Source: Chiloscyllium plagiosum (Eukaryota). From it: a stretch of DNA of 64,000 nucleotides. Made by a program: the position numbers and the translations under genes. Positions 18,620 to 61,678 of the stretch are shown piece after piece (position 1 is the first letter of the stretch; every line of letters begins with the position of its first letter). The notes under the pieces are model-generated. The model saw only the letters and a program-made list of their open reading frames with translations, was not told the origin of the DNA and did not search any database. The stretch is taken from positions 11,044,911 to 11,108,910 of the forward strand of contig NC_057754.1 of NCBI RefSeq assembly GCF_004010195.1, read 5' to 3'.

Positions 18620-19610
18620 TGATTCTTTGTGAATTCGCTGGTGTGTTTGCAAACTGCATATCCTTTCACACAAACAGAGCAAGTATACAGCACCCGCCCA
18701 ATGTTATTTCACTGGTGTGTTAACAGTTTGGATGACCGAGTGGATCCCTTCCCACATACAGAACAAGTGAACTATCTCTCCCCAGAGTAAACATGATGAA
18801 GTATCAACAGGTGAATTGACTGTGGGAATGTTTCTCCCTAGTGTCAACTTGCTGGTGACTCCACAGGTGGGATGATTGGGTAAATCTCTTCCCACAATCG
18901 GAGCAGATGAATGGTTTTTCTCCAGTGGGAACCCGCTCCTGTATCTGCAGACGGGAAGACCGACTGAATCCCTTCCCTCACTGGGACCAAGTGAAAGGTC
19001 TCTCCCCAGTGTGAAGTCGCTGGTGAGTCCACAGGTTGGATGACTGAGTAAATCCCATCCCAAATTCTGAACAGCTGATTGGTTTCTCTCCAGTGTGAAT
19101 TTGTTGGCGTTTCAGGAGTCTGGATGACAGAATGTATCCTTTCCCACATTCAAAGCAGGTGAATGGCTTCTCCCCAGTGTGAACTCGCTGATGTATCCAC
19201 AGGTCGGATGATGAAGTGAATCCCTTCTCACAGTTGGAGCAAGTGAATGGTTTCTCCCCTCTGTGACTGTGTTGGTGTAGCCATAAGCTGGATGACCGAC
19301 TGAATTTCATCCCACACTCTGAGCAAGTGAATGGCTTCTACCCAGTGTGAACCCGCTAATGTAACAACAGGTTCAATGACTGAGTGAATCCTATCCCACA
19401 GATGGGGGTAGGTGAATGGTTTCTCTCCAGTGTGACTGCAGTGGTGAGTTTCCAGCTGTGATGTGTAAAGAAATCTCTTCCCACTGTCCCTACATTGCCA
19501 CAGTCGCTCCCCATAGCGATTGCACTGGTGTTTGGACATTTCAGATGAATCTTCACAGATGATATATGTTCCTCTCCAGTGCGAATGATGCTTTTGCCTT
19601 CAATGTTCAA
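18620..19610 (-). pseudogene. C2H2 zinc-finger gene, frameshifted pseudogene (roughly 10 decayed fingers)
   Basis: Fingers such as [27 protein letters not shown] are spread across several frames. N-terminus MNIEGKSIIRTGE. Confidence 0.88.
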
Positions 19611-33952: not shown

Positions 33953-34454
33953 CCATAAGGAACAGGGATTACACAGATTTATTGCACAAATCAGAATTTA
34001 CTGTACAAATGAACTTGGGTTTATTAAACAGATTGACCCTGACAATATACTGAGGGACACTATCTCTATCTGTATGTGTTTGACTGTGCCTGCCTGTGTA
34101 TTTGTGTCTTTGCCTGTGTTTCCATGTATGTGTGTTTATGAATTTGTTTTTTTTCTGTGTATCAGTATGTGGGGACCCAGCTCTGCCTGCAATGCGACAC
34201 ACTTCAAATGTAGAAATTAAAAATGTGACGAATCAAAGTCACAGTTTCTCTGTGCCTCTGGTGTTTAAAGTGATACAATGCCACCCGCTGCTGGCCTGCC
34301 CATGATACATCACAACACCGCATATTTCTCTATTCCATTGCATTTTTTTCCTGGTCCTCAGGGGATGGAGGAATCCTCCATCACATCAAATCATTCCTCC
34401 CTGCGGCTGGATCAAAGTTTTTAACAACAGCAGCAACAGATGCCTGCCCTGCGG

Positions 34455-35156
34455 TCACTTGTGAACTCGCTGGTGTCTTAGAAGGTGGGATGACTGAGTA
34501 AATGCTTTCCCACAGATGGAGCAGGCATACAGCTTCTCACCAGTGTGTATTCGCTGGTGTTTCAGAAGGCTGTTTGAATGGACAAATCGTTTCCCACACT
34601 CAGAGCAGAGAAATGGCCTCTCCCCAGTGTGAATGCGTTGATGTGTCAGCACGTCACATCTGTGTTTAAAGCTCTTCTCACAGTGCGAACATTTGAAAGG
34701 TCTCTCATCAGTGTGAACCAGTTGGTGCGCCCTGAGGTTGGATAACTGAGAGAATGCTTTGCCACACTCCGCGCAGGGGAATGGCCTCTCCCCAGTGTGA
34801 ACTCGCTGGTGTTTCATTAGGCAGGACGAGTCACTGAATCCCTTCCCACATTCTGGGCAGATGAACGGCCTCTCCCCAGTGTGAACTTGCTGGTGTCGGA
34901 GTAGGTTGGCTGATTGAGTGAATCCCTTCCCACACACAGAGCAGGGGAATGGTTTTTCTCCAGCATGAACTCGTTGGTGTCTCCACAGGTTGGATGAGTC
35001 ACTGAATCCCTTCCCACACTTGGGGCAAATGAACGGCCTCTCCCCAGTGTGAGTGCGTCGATGAGTTTCCAGCAGGGATGGGCGTTTGAATCCTTTCCCA
35101 CAGTCCACACATTTCCATGGTTTCTTTGTCGTGCAGATGTCTTCACATTTCTCCAT
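34455..35156 (-). CDS. C2H2 zinc-finger protein, 8 fingers, no KRAB/SCAN/BTB domain (paralog A)
   Basis: Intact 233-aa ORF with 8 CxxC...HxxxH units and TGE(R/K)PF linkers. Upstream acceptor ttttacAG at 35520-35521. Confidence 0.9.
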   Translation of the reverse strand: MEKCEDICTTKKPWKCVDCGKGFKRPSLLETHRRTHTGERPFICPKCGKGFSDSSNLWRHQRVHAGEKPFPCSVCGKGFTQSANLLRHQQVHTGERPFICPECGKGFSDSSCLMKHQRVHTGERPFPCAECGKAFSQLSNLRAHQLVHTDERPFKCSHCEKSFKHRCDVLTHQRIHTGERPFLCSECGKRFVHSNSLLKHQRIHTGEKLYACSICGKAFTQSSHLLRHQRVHK

Positions 35157-36471
35157 ATCAGATCATCAGCTGACTCCTTGCCCATACACAGGACAGGGAT
35201 ACAGTTTCTCCCCAGTGAGTGGCGTAGTGTTAGTCAGTCTGTGTAACTAGTTCAAGACCTGTCCAGTCAGTTCACCAGGAACACTTTCCCTCAGGCTGTG
35301 TAACTGGCAAGAGCTCTCTCCACAGTCAGTTCACTTGTACAGTCACCTGCATGGATGTGTCTTGCTGCATTTCCAGTTACACTGACTCTTAAAATCTTTT
35401 CCCAAAGACAGTAGACAAATGTTGCAAATCCAATTGTTTTCAAGTCCTGATGAATTGATTCACTCTCTAAACTGGACAGGCTTTGGAATTCTTGCTAATA
35501 AATGCACCTCTGTGATTCTCTGTAAAACAAGTTTAAGAATCAGGAAAAGGAGAGTATGAGAGATAGAACTGTTTAAGACAGTACAAGAGATTGTGAAATG
35601 GAATTCATTGAATCTGGTAATTTGTGAAAAACACTCAAATAGTGACCTTGAAAAATTCTTGGATTGTCATAAAAATTCAATTGGTTCACGAATGCCCTTC
35701 AGGGAAGGGGACCTACTGCCTGTCCCTGAGCCTCTACAGTACTCAGCCCTCAATGGGAGGAGATTCTTAAGGACACAATTTCCTCCCTCTACATCACAGG
35801 TATAACTGATTGATCGTCTCTCCAAGAAGGTCAAGACCAGCATATATGGTGAACTCCGCTCCCAGACACACACCACCCTTTGTTGCTGTTTCTTTACGGC
35901 TGTTACCTAACAATCCTGTAACTCCTCACCGACAGCATCGTGGGAGAGCTGTCACAGCAGGATAGCAGTGAATGCTGGCCTCTTTAGCGTTGCTCAAGTC
36001 CCAGTAATAACGTTGGAGGTAAATTATATTAGAACTGCTCTTGAGAAACATCGCTTCTTAAAAGAAATCCCTGAACTTGGAACAGACACCTTCAGTTAAG
36101 TTACTAAATTTAGGAATACTTCTTGTGACAGCCTCCCATTAGAAGTTACTGGAGCCACTTAAACCCAGCAGCCTCTCGCTACAACAATCCCTACAACAGA
36201 CACAGGAATGTGCAACAGGGGGAAATCTGCAGGAAAGCAAAATTACTACAACTCAGGCAGTATCTCCAGAGAGAGAAAATATTAATTGAACTTACTGACC
36301 TTCTGTCTTCAATAATCAGCCTCTCCTCAGTCTAGGAGAAACAGACGTTCCTTTTGATTTGAGCTTGCTGAAAGTAAATCCCTTCACTCTAACTCTGTGC
36401 AAAAGGAGTTTCCTAGGGCTCGGTACTAAGCTGGGCACAGACAACTTCCACCAGATTGTCCCTGAACTCAC

Positions 36472-40499: not shown

Positions 40500-41870
40500 G
40501 TTGATATCTGTGAACTCTGTGCTGTCTCAGCAGGGTCGATCAGTGAGTGAATTCCTTCTCCCACACGGAGCAGGTGAATGGTCTGTCCCCCAGTGTGATC
40601 TCTCTGCTGACTCAGCAGGGTTGGTAAGTGAGCTAACTGTTTTTCTCACATGGAGCAGGGGAATGTTTTCTCCCCAGTGTGAACTTGCTGGTGAGTTGAG
40701 ATGATCACCTGAATCCATCCCCAAATAAAAGCACCTGAAAGGTCTTTCATCGTGTGAACATGTTGACAGAACATTAGTTCCACAGAACTTCAATAGTACT
40801 TTCCACACACTAGACATTTGAAAGTTCTCTCCTCAATGTGAATATGTTGATGATAAAACTGTCCCCAGGAACTTGTATAGTGATTCCTAGTCTGAACATT
40901 TAAAAAGTCTCTCCTCAGTGTGACCACATTCATGGTGACTTCAGTTCCACAGAATTCCTGAAACACTTCCCACAATATGAACATTTGAAAGGTCTGTCCT
41001 CACTATGAACATGTTGATGACAAGTCAGTCCCCAGGAGTTTGTATAGCACTTCTCCCAGTCTGGGCATTTAAAAGATCTCTCTGCAGTGTGAACTTACTG
41101 GTGTCTCAGCCGTTTGGACGAATGAGTGAATGTCTTCCCACACTCAGAGCTGCTGAACAGTCTCTTCCCAGTGTAAATCTGCTGGTGCTTCATGATGTCA
41201 GATGATCACCTGAACCCAGTCCCACAGAGAGAGCATCTGATGTCCCACCAACTTGCTCACATTAATGAGAGACCTTTGAAATGCTCAGCCTGTGAGAAAT
41301 GCTACAAAATCTCCAGATACCTGTCTTCAGAGTGAACACATTGGCTAAGCATTTCAAAGATCTCTCATTAATGTGAGGAAGTTGGTGGGACATCAGGTCC
41401 CTGGGAGTTTTATAACCCATCCCACTGTTGGGCACTTCAAGGCACGTTGATGGGACATCGGGTCCCCAGATATTGTATAATATTTTCCACAGTTTAGATA
41501 TTTAAAAGATATCTCATTAGTATGAACATCAAGTTCCCAGAGGTTTTATAAGATTCTCCACAGTGTTGACATTTAAATGGTCTCTCCTTAGCTTAAACGA
41601 GGTAATGTTGCAGCAGGTTAGATGACTGAGTGAACCCCTTCTCATAAACTGAGCAGGTGAATGGCCTGTTACCTGTGTGACAGCATCGATGAGTTTCCAG
41701 CTCAGAAGGGGAAATGAATTCCTCCCCACAATCCCCACATTTCCACAGTTTCTCCCAAGTGTGACAGCATTTGTGGTTTGTGAGCTTTGATGATTGTCTA
41801 AAGCCTTGCCCATGCACTCAATACGTGTGCGGTTTCTCTCCACTGTGAATGCGGCTTGTTCATTCCATGT
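40500..41870 (-). pseudogene. C2H2 ZNF pseudogene (>10 decayed fingers) with an internal inverted duplication
   Basis: [37 protein letters not shown] and HIEERTFKCLVCGK, with many frameshifts. Confidence 0.85.
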
Positions 41871-45179: not shown

Positions 45180-45885
45180 AACACCCGCACCAATCAACCA
45201 CACTGCTCCGTGGCTCAACATTTCAACTCCCTCTCCCACTCTGCCGAGGACATGGAGGTCCTGGGCCTCCTTCACCACCGCTCCCTCACCACCAGATGCC
45301 TGGAGGAAGAACGCCTCATCTTCTGCCTCGGAACACTTCAACCCCAGGGCATCAATGTGGACTTCAACAGTTTCCTCATTTCCCCTTCCACCACCTCACC
45401 CTAGTTCCAAACTTCCAGCTCAGCACTGTCCCCATGACTTTAGATTAGATTAGATTAGATTACTTACAGTGTGGAAACAGGCCCTTCGGCCCAACAAGTC
45501 CACACCGACCCGCCAAAGCGCAACTGACCCATACCTCTACATTTACCCCTTCACCTAACACTATGGGCAATTTAGCATGGCTAATTCACCTAACCTGCAC
45601 ATCTTTGGACCGTGGGAGGAAACCGGAGCACCCTGAGGAAACCCACACAGACACGGGGAACAGACACGGGGAGAATGTGCAAACTCCACACAGTCAGTCG
45701 CCTGAGTCAGGAATTGAACCCGGGTTTCTGGCGCTGTGAGGCAGCAGTGCTAACCACCGTGCCGCCGTGTCCGGACTTGTCCGACCTGCCTATCTCCTTT
45801 TCCACCTATCCACTCCACCCTCTCCCCCACCCTCCCGACCTATCACTTTAATCCCCTCCCCCACTCACCTATTGTACTCTATGCT
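45180..45885 (+). mobile_element. Penelope-like 3' fragment (GIY-YIG C-terminus and UTR) with a nested V-SINE
   Basis: VAQHFNSLSHSAEDMEVLGL..LEEERLIFCLGTLQPQGINVDF. Confidence 0.85.
45440..45767 (-). mobile_element. HE1/V-SINE, young copy
   Basis: Complete head, V-domain and (TCTAA)4 tail. Confidence 0.92.
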
Positions 45886-46675
45886 NNNNNNNNNNNNNNN
45901 NNNNNNNNNNNNNNNNNNNNNNNNNNNNNNNNNNNNNNNNNNNNNNNNNNNNNNNNNNNNNNNNNNNNNNNNNNNNNNNNNNNNNNNNNNNNNNNNNNNN
46001 NNNNNNNNNNNNNNNNNNNNNNNNNNNNNNNNNNNNNNNNNNNNNNNNNNNNNNNNNNNNNNNNNNNNNNNNNNNNNNNNNNNNNNNNNNNNNNNNNNNN
46101 NNNNNNNNNNNNNNNNNNNNNNNNNNNNNNNNNNNNNNNNNNNNNNNNNNNNNNNNNNNNNNNNNNNNNNNNNNNNNNNNNNNNNNNNNNNNNNNNNNNN
46201 NNNNNNNNNNNNNNNNNNNNNNNNNNNNNNNNNNNNNNNNNNNNNNNNNNNNNNNNNNNNNNNNNNNNNNNNNNNNNNNNNNNNNNNNNNNNNNNNNNNN
46301 NNNNNNNNNNNNNNNNNNNNNNNNNNNNNNNNNNNNNNNNNNNNNNNNNNNNNNNNNNNNNNNNNNNNNNNNNNNNNNNNNNNNNNNNNNNNNNNNNNNN
46401 NNNNNNNNNNNNNNNNNNNNNNNNNNNNNNNNNNNNNNNNNNNNNNNNNNNNNNNNNNNNNNNNNNNNNNNNNNNNNNNNNNNNNNNNNNNNNNNNNNNN
46501 NNNNNNNNNNNNNNNNNNNNNNNNNNNNNNNNNNNNNNNNNNNNNNNNNNNNNNNNNNNNNNNNNNNNNNNNNNNNNNNNNNNNNNNNNNNNNNNNNNNN
46601 NNNNNNNNNNNNNNNNNNNNNNNNNNNNNNNNNNNNNNNNNNNNNNNNNNNNNNNNNNNNNNNNNNNNNNNNNNN
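45886..46675. other. Assembly gap (N run)
   Basis: 790 consecutive N. Confidence 1.
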
Positions 46676-48360
46676 GACTGGAAGCAGAGCCTAGCAGGAA
46701 AGACAGTAGAGCAAAAATGGCAGGGGTTTGTGGGTATAATTGAGGACACTGTACAGAGGTTCATCCCCAAGAAAAGAAAGATTATCCGGTGAGGGATTAG
46801 ACAGCCATAGCTGACAAAAGAAGTCAGGAAATGTATTAAAGAAAAAGAGAGATCCTATAAAGTGGCCAAGAGCACTGGGAAATCAGAAGATTGGGAAGGC
46901 TACAAAAACAAACAGAGGATAACAAAGAGAGAAATAAAGAAGGAGAGGATCAAATATGGAGGTAGGCTAGCCAGTAATATTAGAAATGATAGTAAAAGTT
47001 TCTTTCAATACATAAGAAACAAACGACAGGCAAAAGTAGACATTGGGCCACTTCAAACTGATGCTGGAAGCCTACTGATGGGAGATAAGGAAATAGCTGG
47101 AGAATGTAATAAGTACTTTGCATCAGTCTTCACAGTGGAAGACATGAGTAATATCCCAACAATTAAAGGGCTGAGTTGAGTATGGTTGCCATTACAAAAG
47201 AGAGAGTGCTAGAAAAGCTAAAAGGTCTTACAATTGACAAATCTCCTTGGCCCTAATGGGCTACATCCTAGAGTTCTGAGGGAGGTGGCTGAGGAAATAG
47301 TGGAGGCATTAGCTGAGATCTTTCAAAAGTCACTGGAGTCAGGGAAATTCCTGGATGATTGGAAGACCGCCATTGTAACCCCATTGTTCAAGAAAGGATC
47401 AAGACAAAAGGTAGAAAATTATAGGCCAATTAGACTAACTTTGGTTGTTGGTAAAATTCTAGAATCCATTGTTAAGGATGAGGTTTCTAAATTCTTGGAA
47501 GAGCAGGGTCGGATTAGAACAAGTCAACATGGATTTAGTAAGGGGAGGTCGTGCCTGACAAACCTGGTAGAATTCTTTGAAGAGGTGACAAGTAGGTTAG
47601 ACCAGGGAAACCAGTGGATGTGGTCTATCTAGACTTCCAAAAGGCCTTTGATAAGGTGCCACACGGGAGACTGCTGAGTAACGTGAGAGCCCATGGTGTT
47701 CGAGGTGAGGTACAGGCATGGATTGAGGATTAGCTGTCTGACAGAAGGCAGAGAGTTGGGATAAGAGGTTCTTTTTCAGAATGGCAGCCGATGACAAGCG
47801 GTGTCCCACAGGGTTCAGTGTTGGGACCGCAGCTGTTCACATTACATATTAATGATCTGGATAAAGGGACTGGGGGCATTCTAGTGAAGTTTGCCGATGA
47901 TACGAAGATAAGATTAGATTAGATTAGATTAGATTAGATTAGATTACTTACAGTGTGGAAACAGTTTAGAAGGTTAAGGGGAGATCTAATAGAAACTTAC
48001 AAGATAATAAATGGCTTGGAAAGGATGGATGCTAAGAAATTGTTTCTGTTAAGCGGGGAGACTAGGACCCGTGAGCACAGCCTTAAAATTAGAAGGGGTC
48101 AATTCAGAACAGAAATGCGGAGACATTTCTTCAGCCAGAGAGTGGTGGGCCTGTGGAATTCATTGCCGTGGAATGCAGTGGAGGCTGGGACGCTAAATGT
48201 CTTCAAGGCAGAGATTGATAAATTCTTGATGTCACAAGGAATTAAGAGCTATGGGGAGAATGCGGGTAAGTGGAGTTGAAATGCCCATCAGTCATGATTA
48301 AATGGCAGAGTGGACTCGATGGGCCAAATGGCCTTACGTCCACTCCTATGTCTTATAATC
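46676..48360 (+). mobile_element. CR1 ORF2 RT region to 3' end, with an internal deletion at ~47910-47962
   Basis: [38 protein letters not shown], then RLRGDLIETYKI...FFSQRVVGLWNSLP. Confidence 0.9.
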
Positions 48361-51581: not shown

Positions 51582-52204
51582 TAGGATACTTGGCCCCTCA
51601 AACCTGCTTTGATTCCAGCAACTACAATTTTTTTTGTCTCTTCATCAATAAGGTTTGGTCTGATTTGATTGTGGTCTCAGCTTCTGGTCTACTCCCGATA
51701 TTTTTTGACTCTCTTGTCAGTCAAGAGTTTAACTACCTCTGCATTGAATATTTTTAATGACTGCCACTATTACTGTATGGGTGAATGAGTTCCATAGGCG
51801 TATCCTTTGAGCAAAAAACAATTCACGGCTCAGAGGAAACAGAGTAATGATCAATGGATATTCTTCAAGCTAGAGGAAGGTTTGGAGTGGAGTACCCCAA
51901 CATTGGTTTTGGGACCCTTGCTTTTTCAGATATGTATTAATAATCTAGATCATGATGTGCAGGGATAATATCAAACTCTAAATGTTGAAGAATTGTAAGC
52001 TGTGAAGACCAGAGGTACTCTGGGTGACCACTTTGCAGAACATCTCCAGTCCATGTGCAAGCATGAGCCCGGCCTTCCAGTAGCCAGTCATTTTTACACT
52101 GCATCCTGCTGACATGCCCACTTGTCTGCCCTCGGCATGCTGCAATGGGAAACTGATGGGAAACCGTGACTATCAGGCCCCTGTACACACTGCAGGCCAC
52201 CAGT

Positions 52205-53580
52205 GGAAGGCATAACTAAAGTTAGAAGCCATCACAAAACATCCCCAGAAGGTAACTACAAAGCAGATTAATTAGCCAGAAGAGGTGCTCATGTAACAGA
52301 ATTCTGGCAGCCACCCATAGGTGAGTAGGCAGATGTAGTCACTGTCAGTTAGACAAACGTAGAGGGCCTTAGGTAAGCACAATACCTTAATGATTCCTGA
52401 AAACAGATTTTGCAGGAGTTTATCCAGACACCTACACTGAATGGCAACATTTCCAACAAGTATGAAATGGATTAGTTTTAAAAGCAGGAGTCTATATAGT
52501 CCCGACTCAAGACAGTAATCAAATCATGCATCAATACCTGGATGGGCATGGGCACCAGGGAATAGAGGCCACGACCAAATAATTAAAAGAACTGTGTTGG
52601 TGGCCCAAGTTACAAGGATGTAGAACTCAACATAGAGAACTGTCTGGTGTACGCCCGAAACAATCCAGATAGGTACACCCGAAAGGGTGTACCCGAAAGC
52701 ACAACTGTCCAGTGCCAGGGCCCTGGACAAATCTATAAAATGATTACATAGGTCCCCTTCCACCATGTAGGAATGGATTTACTTACATCCTGGTCATTTT
52801 AGACACTTTCATAAAAAGGGTCAAAGCTTTTCCTTTTAGGACAGCTATCACAAAAATGACGGCACAAATCCCAATGCAACAAGTATTTACAAGATGGGGT
52901 CTAGCCCACAGTATCGAGTCACATCAGGGAACCCATTTCACTGGCCAAGTCACTCAGAATGTGACGACTATGCTTGGTACCAAGCAGAAATTCCACATTG
53001 CATACCACACCCAATCCAGCAGAATTGTGGAAAGGATGAACTGCACCCTAAAAAGGATGATGCGAAAGATGGTACAGCAGAATAATTAAACCTGGGACAC
53101 AGTACTTCCGTTTGTCCTCATGAACTCCATCTCCTGATTCCAGGATATACTCGCCATTGCCTGATCACATGCCAACCCATAAAAGGAGTCAACTACCTGT
53201 TCTGCCTCAACCTCACAGAACCTGCCCTCACTGCCCTCACACACAAAAAAAGTGGTCCCGAAGCTCACTGAGAATATCGAGGCCACTCAGCAGCAGCTGT
53301 CAGGTTAGGGACTAAAAGGAAAGTAAGTAAGGCTTACTTTGACAGTAAAGTCAATCCTGTCAGTTACACAATAGGACAGTTGGTAATGTTACAGATATAC
53401 AACCCTAGCTCCTTTCTTTCCCTTAAATATTCAGGTCCACAAACTCTGGTGGATAAGGTAAGCCCCTCAGTATACAAAATTTTACTAGCCACAGGAAAAA
53501 CTGACTGGTACCCTGTAAACCAGCTAAAAGCCAATGGCACAAACACAGCCACTCTCACCACCTTAGTATATGTATGCTAG
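52205..53580 (+). pseudogene. pol: Retroviral pol 3' remnant (RNase H C-terminus and integrase)
   Basis: RNase H: KVRSHHKTSPEGNYKAD*LARRGA. Zn-binding region: GHGHQG..CWWPKL..NCLV. DDE core: DYIGPLPP..YILVILDTF..RWGLAHSIESHQGTHFTG..VERMNCTLK. C-terminal: KYSGPQTLVDKVSPSVYKI. Confidence 0.88.
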
Positions 53581-55515
53581 ATGAGACTGCCCTAGAGTAA
53601 ATGAGAAGACAAGACCCTGACACATCCTCAATCAGACTGCATCCTGGACAAAATCTATACCTTTTCATCACCACCACTGACCATAGCTTCAACGTCGAAG
53701 GGGCCCCAGACAGTTTAATCGACTCGATGGAGGACTCTCTAGCTGGTTGGAAAGACTCACCAGTCACAACACGGACATGTTACACTCTCCCAACAGAATA
53801 GACATGACACGGCTCCCCAATGATCCAGAGATAGGGAAATCGAACATCCCCGACTCGCTATAACTCAGACCCCTAATGACATATCTGCACGTGATAATAC
53901 AAGAAGGCGAGTACTGACTACAGAAACATGATCGACCCAGACTACAAATGGTAATTCTGGGTGTCACCACTGAAGGGAATGACAGGACATGAACATGGGA
54001 ACTGAGGCGGGATGCAATATTTGCCAAGCCATTAAAGACTGAAGATTCACAGCGCACTGATGAGTTTCTGTTGGATGCCTACTTGACAAATGCACTCATT
54101 CAGTAATCCAGGTGATGAAACTGCTCCTGACAGCCAACCAAGGTGAGGTGCAACTGTTTCTGATGGTCCAAACACACAGGCATTTTACGTCTTCCAATCC
54201 TTATAATCTCCAAATTAGATTCTGCCCATGGTTACAACGTCCATCTCATCCTCGTCTTCACATTTCCTTCATATTCATCTTCAAATTGACATTTAACTCA
54301 TTGGTCATGATGACCATCTCATTTCAGTCTTTTCTGACCACCCCATGGTCAGGTCATTTAAAACCACTGTCACCCCTACCACCAGAAACTAGGCCTCTAA
54401 ACCCAACTTAACCTTCCAAATGGGGTTCACGTTATTATTCTCTTTTGTTTTTTAAACAAGAAAGCAGGGGAGGGTTAGGGCATATGCATTACACCTGTTT
54501 GAAACGATTCAGATATTAGTCAAGGATAACAGAAACAACCCTGATCTCTTCCCAGGATAACCATGAACGCGTGGAACACAACCAAGTTATACCTCACCAG
54601 GATCGTCATCATCACAGGGAACAACACACATGAAACACCGAACAGATCAGGATATATGTACCCAGGATACTTATGATTTGGCCCACCAATTTCAGGCAAA
54701 TGTGAGGGTTGTGTGTTATGGGTCCACACCAATAAAAATATAATGTTCAGATGCAACAACCAGCGGGCAATATATATGAAAATAAATGAGAGTTCAGATG
54801 ATTGCTACCTGAGCATAGAAATCATGGGTGATTGATGGGGATTTGTAAACAAAGGATGCCCCGAGATAGGATGCTTAACAAACAGCCCAGAAGAGGGATT
54901 GGAATTTGGGCAGTGATACCCTGGGAAACTCAGAGTGGATGTTTGCTCTGTACGAAATTAGGAATGGCTTAAAACCAGCTGCAGAGGCACCTAACTCATT
55001 TGCCCTGAAGCCATCTCTGGTCCACAAAACGGACTAGTTTTAAAACTACTGGCAAAGATTTATGTTAACATCAACCACGAATTGGTACCTGTGGTGGTGA
55101 ATTTAGCGGGAACCCAATTGTCAGAATGGTGCTCTCCCCAACTGAAAAGACTATACTATTGGGATGAGAGATAGGGACAGACAACTGGAAGACCAAACCT
55201 GGAATGGAGAAACACCATAAAAGGGAAATACTTAATGATTTAGCGACAAAGTATGGGGCAGGGGTATCAATCATTAATGCCTTTGATTTGGCTGATGTGG
55301 ACAATAAATTCAGAGTCCTGACCTGACAACTAAAACAGGCTTTGGACACAATGAGAATAGTCCGCAGGATGTCGAAGGGGAAGTAGTTGGAAATAAAGCT
55401 GGTAGCCTTATGGTAGCTGTGCTAGAAGGACATGCGAAAACAACAAACCAGATGATAAAAGAGAAATTGGAAGACAACAGCAGACAAGCGAATCAGATCC
55501 TATACACCATATATA

Positions 55516-55697
55516 GACATAGAACATTACAGTGCAGTACAGGCCCTCGATGTTGCGCCAACCTTTGGAACCAATCTGAAGCCTATCTATCCCACACTAT
55601 TCCATTTTCATCCCTATGTTTATTCAATGACTATTTAAATGCCCTTAACGTTGGCAAGTCTACCACTGTTGCAGGCAGTGCGCTCCACGCCCCTACA
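55516..55697 (-). mobile_element. CR1 3' tail inserted in env
   Basis: Reverse complement matches the tail of the 7-11 kb CR1 (11170-11365). Confidence 0.88.
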
Positions 55698-56827
55698 TGG
55701 AACGACAGTGGATGATAGAACAGTTAAAAGAAAATCTTGATCAGGTTTGACACGGACAGGTTCCATCCTGGATCAGCAACGAACAGATACAGCATTTTAT
55801 TCAGGGGAAAGAAACACCCCAAATTATCAGACTGCCAACTGAGGCAACTGACCAAAGTCTGGTTCAACGATGACTGTAAAGGAACTCTTGGGAAAGCTTT
55901 AGGGATGATATTAGGACTCCCAATAATCACCGATGACAGAATTGGACTAGGGGTGTTCAAAGTAGAAAACATAGGCACTATTCAGGAGGGCATATGGATA
56001 GGATTTGATGGCACCTTACCGTACACAATGATAACAGGCCCGTATCCAATTTATTTGAATGCCCCATAGAAGCTCGCAATCTGGGCATTGACATAACTCA
56101 GGGTAGCCTACAGAGGAGAAGGAGAATACTGCCTCACAACCCCATTTAGCACATCAACATATCCGAATGGGACAGCCCAATGTCACCAACACCACCTATT
56201 GTATTGGGCCACACATACTTGACAGGATAGGCCTAACTCAGCTGATAAATACACACAAAGGGAGAGAGGGGAATTTAATGCAAGTGAGAAACTTCGGCAA
56301 ACTCTGGGGGAATATCTGGAGAAGTGTGACACTGAGCCCAAACCCTGCCGGCAATGTTACACCTAATTCAGACCCAGTTGACCACAGCATGTAGAACCCG
56401 TAGAACCTTCACCAAAAACCCAGCCTGCAGGAATTCACAAAGGCAGCTTTTGAAAACCCAAAATGTACCATTATACTGTGAGACTCCATGCCGTCACTTT
56501 TGCGTTCAGAATCTCTCTTCCCCTGACTCCTCCCCTGCTTTCCTCTTCCCTCATTCCTTTTTGTTTCTCCATCAATCTATCTTTACTTAAGAGCCCACAT
56601 AAGTCCAAGCAGTGATCTCAGTCATAACAACCAGGAATCAAATCAACTTGTTTGGAGGTAAAGACCTTAGTGTTGCATTGTCAGGTACCCAATGTGGAAC
56701 CATGAGTCTGGGATTTATCAAATAAGCCCAATGTGTGACCTCTAGATTATTTAAATCGAAATATAACAATGCAGCACACTATACTATATATATTAGCAAA
56801 CTGAGCTCAGTTCAATCATTGACACTT

Positions 56828-57118
56828 GGGGGTGCCACGATGGCTCAGTGGTTAGCACTGCTGCCTCACAATGATAGGGACCTGAGTTCAATTCCAACCT
56901 TGGGTGAATGTCTGTGTGGAGTTTGCACATTCTCCCTGTGAGTGTGTAGGTTTCCTCTGGGTGCTCTGGTTTCCTTCCACAGTCCAAATGATGTCCTGGC
57001 CAGATGGGATTAGCCTTGGGAAATGCAGGGTTACAGAGATGGGGTAGTTCTGGGTCGGAGGGCCAGTGTGGACCTGATGGGCCAAAACGCCTGCTTCCGT
57101 ACTGTAGCAATTCTATGA
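56828..57118 (+). mobile_element. HE1/V-SINE inserted in env
   Basis: TGGCTCAGTGGTTAGCACTGCTGCCTCAC head, V-domain and attctatgatt tail. Confidence 0.88.
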
Positions 57119-57648
57119 TTAAAGGTATGACAGCAGATAAATGATGTCAAAGAGCGAATAAAGGAAATTAAATTAAAAACTTGGTGGGAGGATTTCTGGA
57201 TCTGGGCCTCGCACCTACAAATCCATCCCTCGGTCTGTATTGTGTCACATCTGTCTGTGTTGTTAATTCTGGTTACCCTGGTATACCTCATCATCCTCAC
57301 TGTCAATATGAACCTGGAGAGCTCACTCAACTTCTGGTCTCCCTAAGCTTATTGAACATTATATCAACATTGTAAATGTTTTGCTAAGCCTAGTAGATAT
57401 TAGTTATCACCTTGTTTGTGTGAAATGTCCTATCCCATTGTTTATGTAAAATATTCTTCAGTTTAATTATGTTCATTCGATTTTTGTTATGAATTTCTTT
57501 TCGTATTTGCCCATTTCGCCAATGTCTTATTTATTTTAATTTACTTCTTTTGCTTGATCATCATTGGGTATGAATTTTTGATGTTCCATTTAAATATAGT
57601 TTGGTGATGTTTGCTTGATCTTAGGCATTCAGGATCAAGAAGAGGGTC

Positions 57649-58557
57649 TGTGGGCGGACAAGCTGCTCAAAATAATTAATTTATTATGGATTTATAAAGA
57701 TTTCGACAATAACTAAGGCATACTGCGAAAACTGAGGCAAGCCTTGCCCAGAGTGACTGTGCTAATAAACATGTTGCAAAATCCAGACAGGCTGCAGCTA
57801 CCAACAGGTAGTATGTAACTGACCTGGTAGCTGCAGACGACACAATACATATCCAAATTTGGGTTGGAACAGTTGACCAGAATGCGATCGAAATTACTAT
57901 TAGGTCTGAGAACTGAGATTTACATACTAATAAACCAAAGCCTGCAACCCATTCTAAAAAATGAAAGACTTGACAGCAATCTAGGTTTGTTCAATATTTT
58001 GTGTCAGTTGCATGCATGACATTGTGACCTTTTGCTATAAATTCTGTATCTTATAATCCTGCTCCACAGCTACCTGATGAAGGAACAGCGCTCCGAAAGC
58101 GAGTACTTACAAATAATTCTGTTGGAATATAACCTGGTGTTGTGTGATTTTTAAACTTTGTCCACCCCAGTCCAACATCGGCACGTCCACATCAATCTAT
58201 TGGAGGACATTAAAGACCCTCCCAATAGGGCTGAAACAATTACCAAGTACGAGAATTGCCACAACACCACCCTCGGGAGCGGTAACGTGGGATCAACCAC
58301 CAAGTTGCGAAGACACCCCTGAGACTATCTGGAGAAGACCAGATGACTATCATCATGTGGATCAAGGCCAAGATCTTGTGTGGTGGTATATGATCACCCA
58401 GAGTGAAGTAAAGCACAAGATAGATTTGTAGTGTCAATCATTAGTTTATAGTGTATTTTGTTGTGATACAATTAATAGTGTCAAATAAAATGAATATTAC
58501 TGTTCATTATTATTGAGTCGACTCGCAGTTCTTTTGCTGGATATAAGAGTTAAAACA
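57649..58557 (+). mobile_element. Putative 3' LTR of the ERV (with a PLE insertion at ~57990-58195)
   Basis: Purine tract AAGAAGAGGG at 57637-57646 just before TG at 57649, AATAAA at 58484-58489, and a terminal ...AAAACA at 58557. No second LTR is present in the window to confirm the ends. Confidence 0.6.
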
Positions 58558-59760
58558 TACTGTGTGGCAGGCACGACAGAAGGATGGACAATGCTCCTGC
58601 AGTCTGCTTCAGGGAGGGGAGTTTAAAGGATCATAACTAGCATTGAGACTCCAATAGTACCCACACTCATTCTCTCTCACACAGATAGAAACAGTCTAAT
58701 ACTCAACTCCTGCACCATCCACTTGGCAAAGGAACTATGGCTGCCAGTAGCTAGTTTAAATACCCTCAGGTCTGACCCATCATTCAGCTCATCCTATCAG
58801 CTCCTTCGACTTGGGAGTACAACTGCCCATGTTTGCACCACTGAAAGAGGCATTTTTGTGGTATTAGAGAGAGGACATGTGAGAGAAAGCAGCTCAGTAA
58901 TTTAGCCCAGACTGCCTCTGTCTATCCCTCTCCTCCCCCACTTCCTAACTTCACACAAACTGGTCCCAAATTTAAAATCCATAAAGAGACAAAGCTGCAG
59001 TATCAAAACAGCAGCAACTACAATGCAGGTTAATAAAGACAATAGGATACAGGCTTCTGCAACCAATGGATACAGATTTATTTCACAAGGGAACACAGGA
59101 TTTTCACACAGATCAATACAAGGTATGAGTGGGACTGAAAAGAACAAGCTTCCAGGTTTACTTTTAAGTAGTTTGTGAATTCTACAAATCAATCAACTCA
59201 TTTTCCAAATAAGCAGTGATTACACAGATGTGCTCTCACCCCCCCAACCACCACCCACCCAGTGATTTCTTTAACTGAGCTGGAGTTCATTACTTTCAGC
59301 AGAAACAGACCCCAGTGGATATGGTTCAATAATCAATTAAAAAATAAGAAAATAATCAAACTGCTCTGGCACAACTTAATAGCAGGTATGGGACTTGAAA
59401 CCAGAGCTTCTGTTTCAAGGTGAGGGACACTAAAAGGGTGACAAGTCACATCAAAAGAGCAGAGTAAAATACTTGGAACTTTGAACTTCATAAACTAAAT
59501 ATATCGAGCAGAAAAAATAAGGAAAATATGCTGACCTTTTGACAAACTGCCTCTAGGACTCAATTAGAGTCCACTTCTAGCCACTATGCTTTGTGTTTTT
59601 GACAGGTTTAGCTGAAGGAAAGAAATAAGAAATGGTGGCCCAACGTTGATGGAAGCTATAGTTAAGGTTTTAGGAAAGAGATGCAGAGGTGATGTGAGAA
59701 AAACTTTTATTAAGGACAACAACAGCAACAGATGCAGTCACTTCGGAACTCGCTGGTGTT

Positions 59761-60765
59761 TCACCAGGTGAGATGACTGAGGAAGTCCTTTCCTACAGAG
59801 GGTGCAGGTAACAACTTGTCACCAGTATGTAATCGCTGGTGTTTCAGAAGGTTTTTTGAATGGACAAATCGTTTTCCACATTCGGAGCAGTGGAATGGTC
59901 TCTCTCCAGTATGAATGCGTTGGTGTATTAGCACTGCATATCTGCTTTTAAAGCTCTTCACACAGTGCAAACATTTGAAAGGTTTGTCATCACTGTGAAC
60001 CAGTTGGTGTGCCTTGAGTTTGGATAAATGAGAGAATGCCTTCCCACATTCAGAGCAGGGGAATGGTTTCTCCCCAGTGTGAATGCGCTCATGTGTCAGC
60101 AGGTTGGACGAGTCACTGAATCCCTTCCCACATTTAGAGCAAATAATTGGCTTCTCCCCTGAATGAAATCGCAGATGTCTGGACAAATTGGATGACTGAC
60201 TGAATCCCTTCCCACACTCGGGGCAGATAAATGGCCTCTCCCCAGTGTGAGTGCATTCATGTTTCTGAAGGTCAGATGACTGAGTAAATCCCTTCCCACA
60301 AACAGAGCAGGCGTATGGCCTCTCCCCAGTGTGAGTGCGTTCATGTTTATGAAGGTCAGACGACTGAATAAATCCCTTCCCACAAACAGAGCAAGTGTAT
60401 GGCCTCTCTCCAGTGTGAGTGTATTCATGTCGTAGAAGTTCAGATGACTGGGTGAATCGCTTCCCACACACAGAACAAATAAATAGCCGCTCCCCGGTGT
60501 GAACTCGCTGATGTGTCTGCAGGTTGGATGACTCACTGAATCCCTTCCCACATTCAGGGCAGATGAATGGCCTCGCCCCAGTGTGAGTGCGTTCATGTCT
60601 TAGACGGTCTGATGACTGAGCAAATGCCTTCCCACAAACAGAGCAGCTGTATGGCCTTTCCCCTGTATGACTGCGTCGATGGGCTTCCAGCAAGCATGGA
60701 TATCTGAATCCTTTCCCACAGTCTGCACATTTCCATGGTTTCTCCAAAGGACAGGTGTCTGCCAT
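59761..60765 (-). CDS. C2H2 zinc-finger protein, 11 fingers plus a frameshifted 12th, no KRAB domain (paralog B)
   Basis: Intact 334-aa ORF. Acceptor ttttacAG at 61081-61082 is homologous to that of paralog A. The first exon is not identified in the window. Confidence 0.9.
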   Translation of the reverse strand: MADTCPLEKPWKCADCGKGFRYPCLLEAHRRSHTGERPYSCSVCGKAFAQSSDRLRHERTHTGARPFICPECGKGFSESSNLQTHQRVHTGERLFICSVCGKRFTQSSELLRHEYTHTGERPYTCSVCGKGFIQSSDLHKHERTHTGERPYACSVCGKGFTQSSDLQKHECTHTGERPFICPECGKGFSQSSNLSRHLRFHSGEKPIICSKCGKGFSDSSNLLTHERIHTGEKPFPCSECGKAFSHLSKLKAHQLVHSDDKPFKCLHCVKSFKSRYAVLIHQRIHTGERPFHCSECGKRFVHSKNLLKHQRLHTGDKLLPAPSVGKDFLSHLTW

Positions 60766-61678
60766 ATCTCTCTATATGTGAAGATCAGCTGACTTCTCCT
60801 CTCCTGACAGGACAGGGCTACAGTTTCTCCCCACTGACAATCGTGTGATGTTATTCAGTCTGTGTAAATGTTCAAGACCTGTCCACAGTTAGTTCACTGA
60901 AAGACTCACTTGGGTGGATGCGTCTTGGTGCATTTCCAGTCACATCGATGTTTGAAATCTTTTCCCACAAACAGAAAAGATAAACGTTGAAAATCTAATG
61001 GATTTCAAGTCTTGATGAATTGACTCACTCTCTGATCCTGATGGAATGTTTGTTTTGAATTCTTACTGATAAACGTGCCTCTGTAAAACAAATTTAAATC
61101 AGAAAAAGGTGAGTCTGAGAAAGAGAACTGTTTAAAACACGAAAGGAGGTTGTGAAAGGGAGTATATTGAATCTGGTAATTTGTGTGCAAGACACTCCGA
61201 ATCGGTGACCATGAAAAGTTACTGGATTGTCATAAAAACTCAACTAGTGCACAAATGTCCTTCAGGGAAGGGACCCACTTCCTATCCTGGACCTTCACAG
61301 ATTCAGCCCTCAATGGGAAGTGAGACAGTGAGAGCAATGGGATACTTAATGGCACTGCTTCCTCCCTCGACATGTCAGGAATAACTTTGAAAGATTCGCC
61401 CTCGAGGAAGGTCAACAGCAATGTGTATGGAGATCCATGACCTATAAATTGCCCTTCCAGGAATGCACTGTCCTCTTGTGGATACAGGGCAATGTTTCTT
61501 TATAGTAGCTGCCTGAGAATCCTGCAACCCCTCACTGAATAGCAATGTGGGAGAACTGTCACAGCAGTGAATGCTCATGTCCTAGTCATAAAATTAGATA
61601 TAAATTGAATTTGAACTGTTGTTGAGAATCTTCTGGCAAAAATATACTTTATACATAAAAACGGAAGTCTTTATATAT

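Follow-up and report, generated by a model that had tools for sequence, protein, structure and literature searches.

The envelope (Env) of lokiretroviruses has been reported to be similar to the family PF00523 (E value, 2.2e-7) by Wang and Han, who set out four scenarios for the origin of retroviral env and subsequently favoured separate acquisitions by lokiretroviruses and canonical retroviruses (PMC7947760). Foamy virus Env is described as having an F core (PMC11468914), and the nature of the third open reading frame (ORF3) of Ovex1 was left uncertain in 2009 (PMC2717909). Endogenous retroviruses (ERVs) resembling the snakehead retrovirus (SnRV) are known from cartilaginous fish, as CmiERV lineage I of the elephant shark (PMC4422223) and as clade Huo (PMC6001957), and lokiretroviruses were reported in none of six chondrichthyan genomes, that of Scyliorhinus torazame included (PMC7947760). 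In the open-licence literature, we found no statement of an F-type env on SnRV- or Ovex1-like elements, nor of lokiretroviruses in sharks. In this study, we have analysed a 64,000-nucleotide stretch of DNA (the window), in which positions 52205 to 58578 are an old, dead, 5'-truncated provirus remnant, likely from a shark and likely SnRV/Ovex1-like (class III, "clade Huo"), with an env predicted to be of the F type.

On the plus strand, the element runs from the end of a retrovirus-type RNase H through a DDE integrase (IN) and env to a polypurine tract (PPT) and one long terminal repeat (LTR); all of these parts had been recognized in the earlier note and were found where it had placed them (Table 1). 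Every coding part is interrupted by stop codons and frame changes, and the ratio of observed to expected CpG is 0.23 to 0.50. Neither gag, protease and reverse transcriptase (RT) nor a 5' or second LTR was found in the window; the provirus is therefore a 3' remnant. It has received four later insertions, and this copy is now a fixed, decayed locus without the capacity to make virus or Env. A search of Rfam gave no match.

The window env is likely a class I fusion protein of the F type (the type of paramyxovirus F), a reading that is indirect and was reached from sequence comparison by two routes, through lokiretroviral env and through Ovex1 ORF3. Six pieces of it were compared with the env of the lokiretroviral locus L003 and with Ovex1 ORF3, using 200 shuffles each. 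The piece at 55207-55345 matched ORF3 around the basic site of that protein (z 6.9, 0/200 shuffles) and not L003 (172/200); that at 55001-55165 matched the N-terminus of L003 env (z 4.6, 0/200) and not ORF3 (77/200). Further matches were those of 55797-56036 to L003 (z 5.2, 0/200) and of 57122-57310 to ORF3 (z 6.4, 0/200). The significant matches to the two proteins were collinear, and the other pairs were not significant, except for one at 9/200. A profile of five env relatives of the family found the env region of P0009 at an E value of 2e-4 among 171 proteins. Residues 1330 to 1810 of P0009, an Ovex1-like ORF3 from Willisornis vidua, were in turn assigned by the Atlas to Fusion_gly F0 (0.93, 203 shared features, ten of the ten best families from the same clan), with a score that is uncalibrated for parts of proteins. 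The TM marks of gamma- and epsilonretroviruses, ISD and CX6CC, were seen neither in the three forward reading frames between 54400 and 57400 nor in the intact P0001, P0169, P0170, and P0009 env. These results support the earlier proposal of an F-type env unlike those of gamma- and betaretroviruses.

The env motifs described previously are present, namely, GLVL..KIYVN..VPVVVNL (55031-55108), the basic stretch (55210-55224), NLDQV..WISNEQI, MILGLPII..VENIG, the Trp-rich stretch, and the transmembrane (TM) segment; by its homologous position, the basic stretch is a candidate cleavage site. Five relatives were found (P0001 and P0167 to P0170), and the window copy lacks two internal stretches that P0001 has. 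The cysteines of P0001 are spaced by 8, 11, 9, and 22 residues and those of P0169 by 8, 11, 7, and 22, a spacing that we take to resemble the F1 cysteine cluster. An Ig-like N-terminal domain was not detected in the decayed env region. The alignment of P0001 to 55839-56342 picks up again at 57122 after just 22 residues, which makes 56416-57120 inserted DNA; env runs, as judged by eye, to approximately 56415, and the ectodomain of several hundred residues proposed in the earlier note is too long. Of the env inserts, the repeat and the short interspersed nuclear element (SINE) had been correctly located, and a further non-env insertion of approximately 410 bases (56416-56828) had been missed; this insertion is present in low copy number, is common to two related organisms (B and C; see below), and has no match within the window or in Pfam. 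Two candidate matches were dropped as due to chance: P0171 and the match of P0001 at 28.5 to 28.8 kb of the window, which lies on a long interspersed nuclear element (LINE) remnant.

The RNase H tail (KVRSH..GNYKADxLA) is in frame from 52212 and contains one stop. With regard to the dual RNase H arrangement (tether plus RNase H), the window keeps this tail alone, which is of the retroviral type; its best local scores were 76 with P0003, 52 with the lokiretroviral L004, and 26 with the Gypsy protein P0013. The IN remnant, which has stops, frame changes, and one substituted catalytic position, matched Integrase_H2C2 (E value, 3e-7) and rve (2e-6) in Pfam. Its nearest protein is the intact P0002 of S. 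torazame (66% identity in one comparison, and 53% over 52409-53134 and 50% over 53143-53499 in another), in keeping with the shark host previously considered probable. In the IN core, identity was 67% with P0002, 52% with P0003, 41 to 49% with P0004 to P0010, 45% with the lokiretroviral L002, and 39% with L004, and the spacing from RNase H to IN is approximately 173 codons in the window, 178 to 201 in P0003 to P0010, and 226 in L004. A search with residues 1 to 370 of P0002 returned 264 long proteins, the best eight of which (P0003 to P0010, the named members being from turtles and birds) all carry RT, a dual RNase H (tether plus RNase H), and IN. Their RT motifs (PQGF, PQGY, AQGF, or PPGF) resemble, by eye, that of the SnRV row (LPQGFH), unlike those of the lokiretroviral rows (PFGY), in the alignment of PMC7947760. 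P0009 and P0010 carry WMGPVRV, the motif reported for Ovex1 (PMC2717909), from which we infer that they are Ovex1 relatives.

Phylogenetic analysis of IN was based on the window core (one frame), P0002, eight class III-like, two epsilon-like, three gamma, and four Gypsy rows, and two or four lokiretroviral rows; 18 of 123 distinct matches were taken, cluster members were left out, and the group labels of unnamed rows were assigned here. The window and P0002 formed a clade (99/97) within the retroviral clade (100/100), and by path the rows nearest to the window were P0003, P0006, and P0007. The lokiretroviruses branched as sister to all the remaining retroviral rows (93/95; with LG+G4, 94/94); in a quick tree of 43 rows, the window and the lokiretroviruses were also apart, at a node that was not settled. 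In the approximately unbiased (AU) test, grouping of the window with P0003 to P0010 was not rejected (P = 0.13), and that clade was not recovered in the free tree. The IN phylogeny called for in the earlier note, as a check for clustering with Gypsy or with epsilon- or spumaretroviruses, rejected the former (window plus Gypsy, P = 0.018) and, in the free tree, put the window nearest to P0003, P0005, and the epsilon and gamma rows. The window IN is likely to be near the SnRV/Ovex1 group, in a placement that is not final because RT is missing.

These data also bear on the view that the element is an env-bearing Ty3/Gypsy (errantivirus-like) element with an F-type env. In the Atlas, Baculo_F and Gypsy env clusters stand next to F0, and F-type env is reported to be common in metazoan errantiviruses; given the position of IN in the retroviral clade, the AU result, and the retroviral type of the RNase H tail, this alternative is largely refuted and very improbable, and the earlier preference for a retrovirus over Gypsy is borne out.

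A true or basal lokiretrovirus in cartilaginous fish that was missed by an RT-based screen, or a recombinant that carries a lokiretroviral env on another pol, is a more serious alternative, which we nevertheless regard as unlikely. P0002 is labelled NYNRIN-like in the database, and we take NYNRIN to be CGIN1. Lokiretroviral IN has been reported to be close to CGIN1 (PMC7947760); furthermore, the two env pieces that match L003, weak collinear hhalign matches to lokiretroviral env (E values, 0.02 and 0.056), and an IN score of L002 that equals those of some class III rows are as expected of a lokiretrovirus, and the lokiretroviral rows sampled were all teleost-like. Against this, the AU test rejected a grouping of the window with lokiretroviruses twice (P = 0.0215 with two rows and 0.0236 with four rows and another model), neither the window nor P0002 showed the lokiretroviral IN motifs (HD.P..GH.G and, in most rows, WSD[LI]Q) or the lokiretroviral motif W[KR]KV[KP]GH of RNase H, the family env profile ranked Ovex1 (E value, 6e-6) above the L003 frames (0.13 and 0.89), and the published screen cited above reported no lokiretrovirus in its chondrichthyan genomes. 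The earlier suggestion that the element is a lokiretrovirus, extending the range of that lineage to cartilaginous fish, is therefore disfavoured. A metagenome motif scan yielded eight loci, four of them (L002 to L004 and L006) lokiretroviral by match to published rows and none a member of the window family; viral-contig scans gave no relatives of that family and a single locus (L001), without a tblastn match. The four lokiretroviral sequences come from public metagenome assemblies and are likely fish host DNA; L003 has a broken env, and L004 apparently has no RT core. P0139 and P0140, Ovex1-like Pol proteins filed in NCBI as Priestia megaterium, are likely bird sequences that contaminate a bacterial assembly.

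It is still less likely that the element is foamy-like or a fish foamy-like endogenous retrovirus (FLERV; clade Tu) with an F-related Env of its own. Among PDB sequences, the one that P0002 matched best was the IN of prototype foamy virus (E value, 8e-40), a FLERV-like ERV has been published from a catshark (ERV-Spuma.0-Sca), and the F core of foamy Env would agree with such an origin. However, the prototype foamy virus IN scored 140 bits, compared to 226 to 265 bits for P0003 to P0006 (in different runs), and these neighbours lack, by eye, the FLERV RT motifs NSPIQAV and YIDD. Unlike in foamy Env, the F2-like strand is not separated from the basic site by a large insert, and the gap between env and the LTR, approximately 300 AT-rich bases, is too small for accessory ORFs.

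Several observations speak against an SnRV/Ovex1-like element with an F-type env. For the env, the match to Ovex1 in the TM region may be partly compositional, two of the six pieces matched the lokiretroviral env and not Ovex1, and P0001 was nearest to Monjiviricetes fusion clusters in the Atlas, with low recognition. Pfam env families, PF00523 included, gave no match with the window pieces, P0001, P0167 to P0170, or the P0009 env; since the lokiretroviral env pieces used as a positive control also missed PF00523 (0/5), these blanks are weakly informative. For pol, SnRV, foamy viruses, and fish FLERVs were not among the IN rows; in the free tree, the window joined P0003, P0005, and the epsilon and gamma rows (90/93, unstarred) and was not sister to the Ovex1-like rows; and raw IN scores overlapped (213 bits for L002, 207 for P0007, and 204 for P0008). 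No RT of the window family was obtained, although RT defines the lineages (a clade sister to all other retroviruses for lokiretroviruses, and grouping with SnRV for class III), and Wang and Han warn that IN is often swapped and that its trees are hard (PMC7947760). Structural searches added little: neither P0001 nor A2 had a PDB sequence match below an E value of 0.5, the AlphaFold models of A2 and A3 were poor (pLDDT, 51 and 45), Foldseek with these models gave no match at an E value of ≤0.001 (weak rows, which included several F proteins together with walleye and foamy Env, were not counted as evidence), and VIA structural matches, which were rejected, concerned generic helices only. On balance, we still judge it probable that the element is a real ERV remnant, old and now dead, whose env is likely of the F type and whose backbone is likely not lokiretroviral.

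We postulate that in the live virus, a spliced env would have encoded a precursor with an N-terminal extension, possibly an attachment module, behind which an F2-like part and a basic cleavage site led into the fusion peptide and the first heptad helix, with the Cys-rich beta region, second helix, Trp-rich stretch, and TM segment following. Once cleaved, this Env would have been a trimeric F-type fusogen that drove membrane fusion through an F-type hairpin. A pyrimidine tract and AG near 54440-54467, picked by eye, could be the env splice acceptor, and the broken protein-like frames in the approximately 900 bases between IN and env (53560-54450) could be the remnant of a long Pol tail or an accessory ORF. 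Germ line integration in an ancestor would have been followed by loss of the 5' half and by the four insertions.

The stretch or part of it was found in 20 of 24 sequencing runs from three organisms. In the orthology comparison, for which one DNA run per organism was used, contigs of organisms B and C extended from the LTR into 3' flanking sequence, and the 5' break was spanned by one contig of C; the insertion is therefore older than the split of these organisms, and it drifts like its flank, with differences of 2.6 to 5.7% in the longer element pieces and 3.8 to 3.9% in the 5' flank. At shark substitution rates assumed to be 0.5e-9 (PMC10699275) and 2.2e-10 (PMC4422223), a difference of 4% would correspond, as a rough estimate, to a minimum age of approximately 40 to 90 million years. 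The LTR was correctly identified in the earlier note; its 3' end is probably at approximately 58578, rather than at 58557, because family contigs stop close by in runs X1 and X17, where a variant letter at 58575 (12 contigs in each) lies 5 and 8 letters from the contig end. The LTR drew more contigs than the internal part did, an excess that suggests solo LTRs, with the caveat that depth is no copy number. In a single-cell run, of which 2% was read, next to no reads fell on pol and env outside the inserted repeats, a weak negative result.

The ERV lies inside a zinc finger gene cluster, with C2H2 arrays on the minus strand at 18650-19500, 34450-35220, 40500-41850, and 59730-60840; the frame at 59761-60771 is open (336 amino acids; Pfam zf-C2H2). 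The 5' break adjoins fragments at 51800-52200 that have no Pfam match and that are presumably LINE-like and Penelope-like. A run of N (an assembly gap) occupies 45880-46680, approximately 5.5 kb upstream of the ERV.

Table 1. Parts of the provirus remnant and its insertions (window positions)
Feature	Position	Strand	Evidence or remark
C-terminal end of retroviral RNase H	52205..52322	+	P0003 47%, E 0.01; 5' truncation point just upstream
Integrase remnant (H2C2, core, SH3-like C-terminus), broken	52409..53502	+	Pfam and P0002 alignment
Pol tail or pol-env interval	53503..54450	+	0 Pfam matches in 3 frames
Likely N-terminal env extension ahead of F core, heavily decayed	54451..55000	+	Position only; no significant Pfam match
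Env, F2-like first strand	55001..55165	+	Matches N-terminus of lokiretroviral env L003
Env basic stretch, fusion-peptide-like segment, start of first heptad helix	55207..55345	+	Matches Ovex1 ORF3 at its basic site
Env, helical continuation	55350..55514	+	P0170 47%, E 2e-13
High-copy repeat inserted in env	55517..55696	.	Repeat
Env F1-like core, broken, internal deletions	55706..56415	+	P0167 86%, P0001 45%, P0169 32%
Low-copy non-env insertion	56416..56828	.	Gap in P0001 alignment
High-copy SINE-like insertion	56829..57120	.	Repeat
Env end: second helix, Trp-rich membrane-proximal stretch, TM, short tail	57122..57345	+	P0001 56%; Ovex1 z 6.4
Polypurine tract	57637..57646	+	Sequence
3' LTR (TG start, AATAAA at 58484)	57649..58578	+	End probably ~58578; high-copy insert at ~57951-58194

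What survives at this locus is a dead fragment, and a wider lokiretroviral range is not supported. If our interpretation is correct, an F-type env on an SnRV/Ovex1-like backbone would mean that such envelopes are not peculiar to lokiretroviruses and, together with the F-like foamy Env, would favour a shared ancestral F-type env, which can be tested by RT and Env trees; Ovex1 ORF3, which is conserved and has gonadal expression in birds, would gain a candidate identity as an F-type fusion protein. We tentatively propose, with slightly less than even confidence, that the env of this shark family joins lokiretroviral Env and Ovex1 ORF3 in one F-type lineage that, with foamy Env, spans lokiretroviruses, spumaviruses, and SnRV-like class III elements, that an F-type fusogen was the ancestral retroviral envelope and was later replaced in the gamma, beta, and lenti lineages, and that Ovex1 ORF3 is a co-opted F-type fusogen.

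The element shares with SnRV-like class III elements the dual RNase H and SnRV-type RT motifs of its nearest full Pol proteins, a probable cartilaginous fish host, and a simple pol-env-PPT-LTR end, and its env, homologous to Ovex1 ORF3 and without ISD or CX6CC, is of the kind that marks SnRV/Ovex1-like class III. SnRV itself is described as having a 3' ORF and a long tail on its env, neither of which is present here, and the passages of PMC6001957 and PMC4422223 on SnRV-like ERVs do not call their env F-type. Ovex1 (PMC2717909) is similar in having an ORF3 env that lacks ISD and CX6CC and is homologous to the window env at the basic site and fusion peptide, the Cys-rich region, and the Trp-rich/TM end, as well as in its N-terminal env extension and related IN; its ORFs, unlike those of the window copy, are intact and gonad expressed, env identity is only approximately 20%, and the IN sequences are not sisters. 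Foamy Env is likewise a retroviral Env built on an F core (PMC11468914), although its receptor-binding module sits between the subunits, whereas any extra module in the window element would be N-terminal to the F core. Lokiretroviruses (PMC7947760) have an F-like env with a basic site, fusion peptide, coiled coil, and TM segment, two env segments homologous to those of the window, and a retroviral RNase H; they differ in that the window IN falls outside their clade and their signature IN and RNase H motifs were not seen. Having an F-type env does not by itself identify a lokiretrovirus, since the F core is also found in foamy Env and ORF3 of Ovex1 appears to be of the F type as well.

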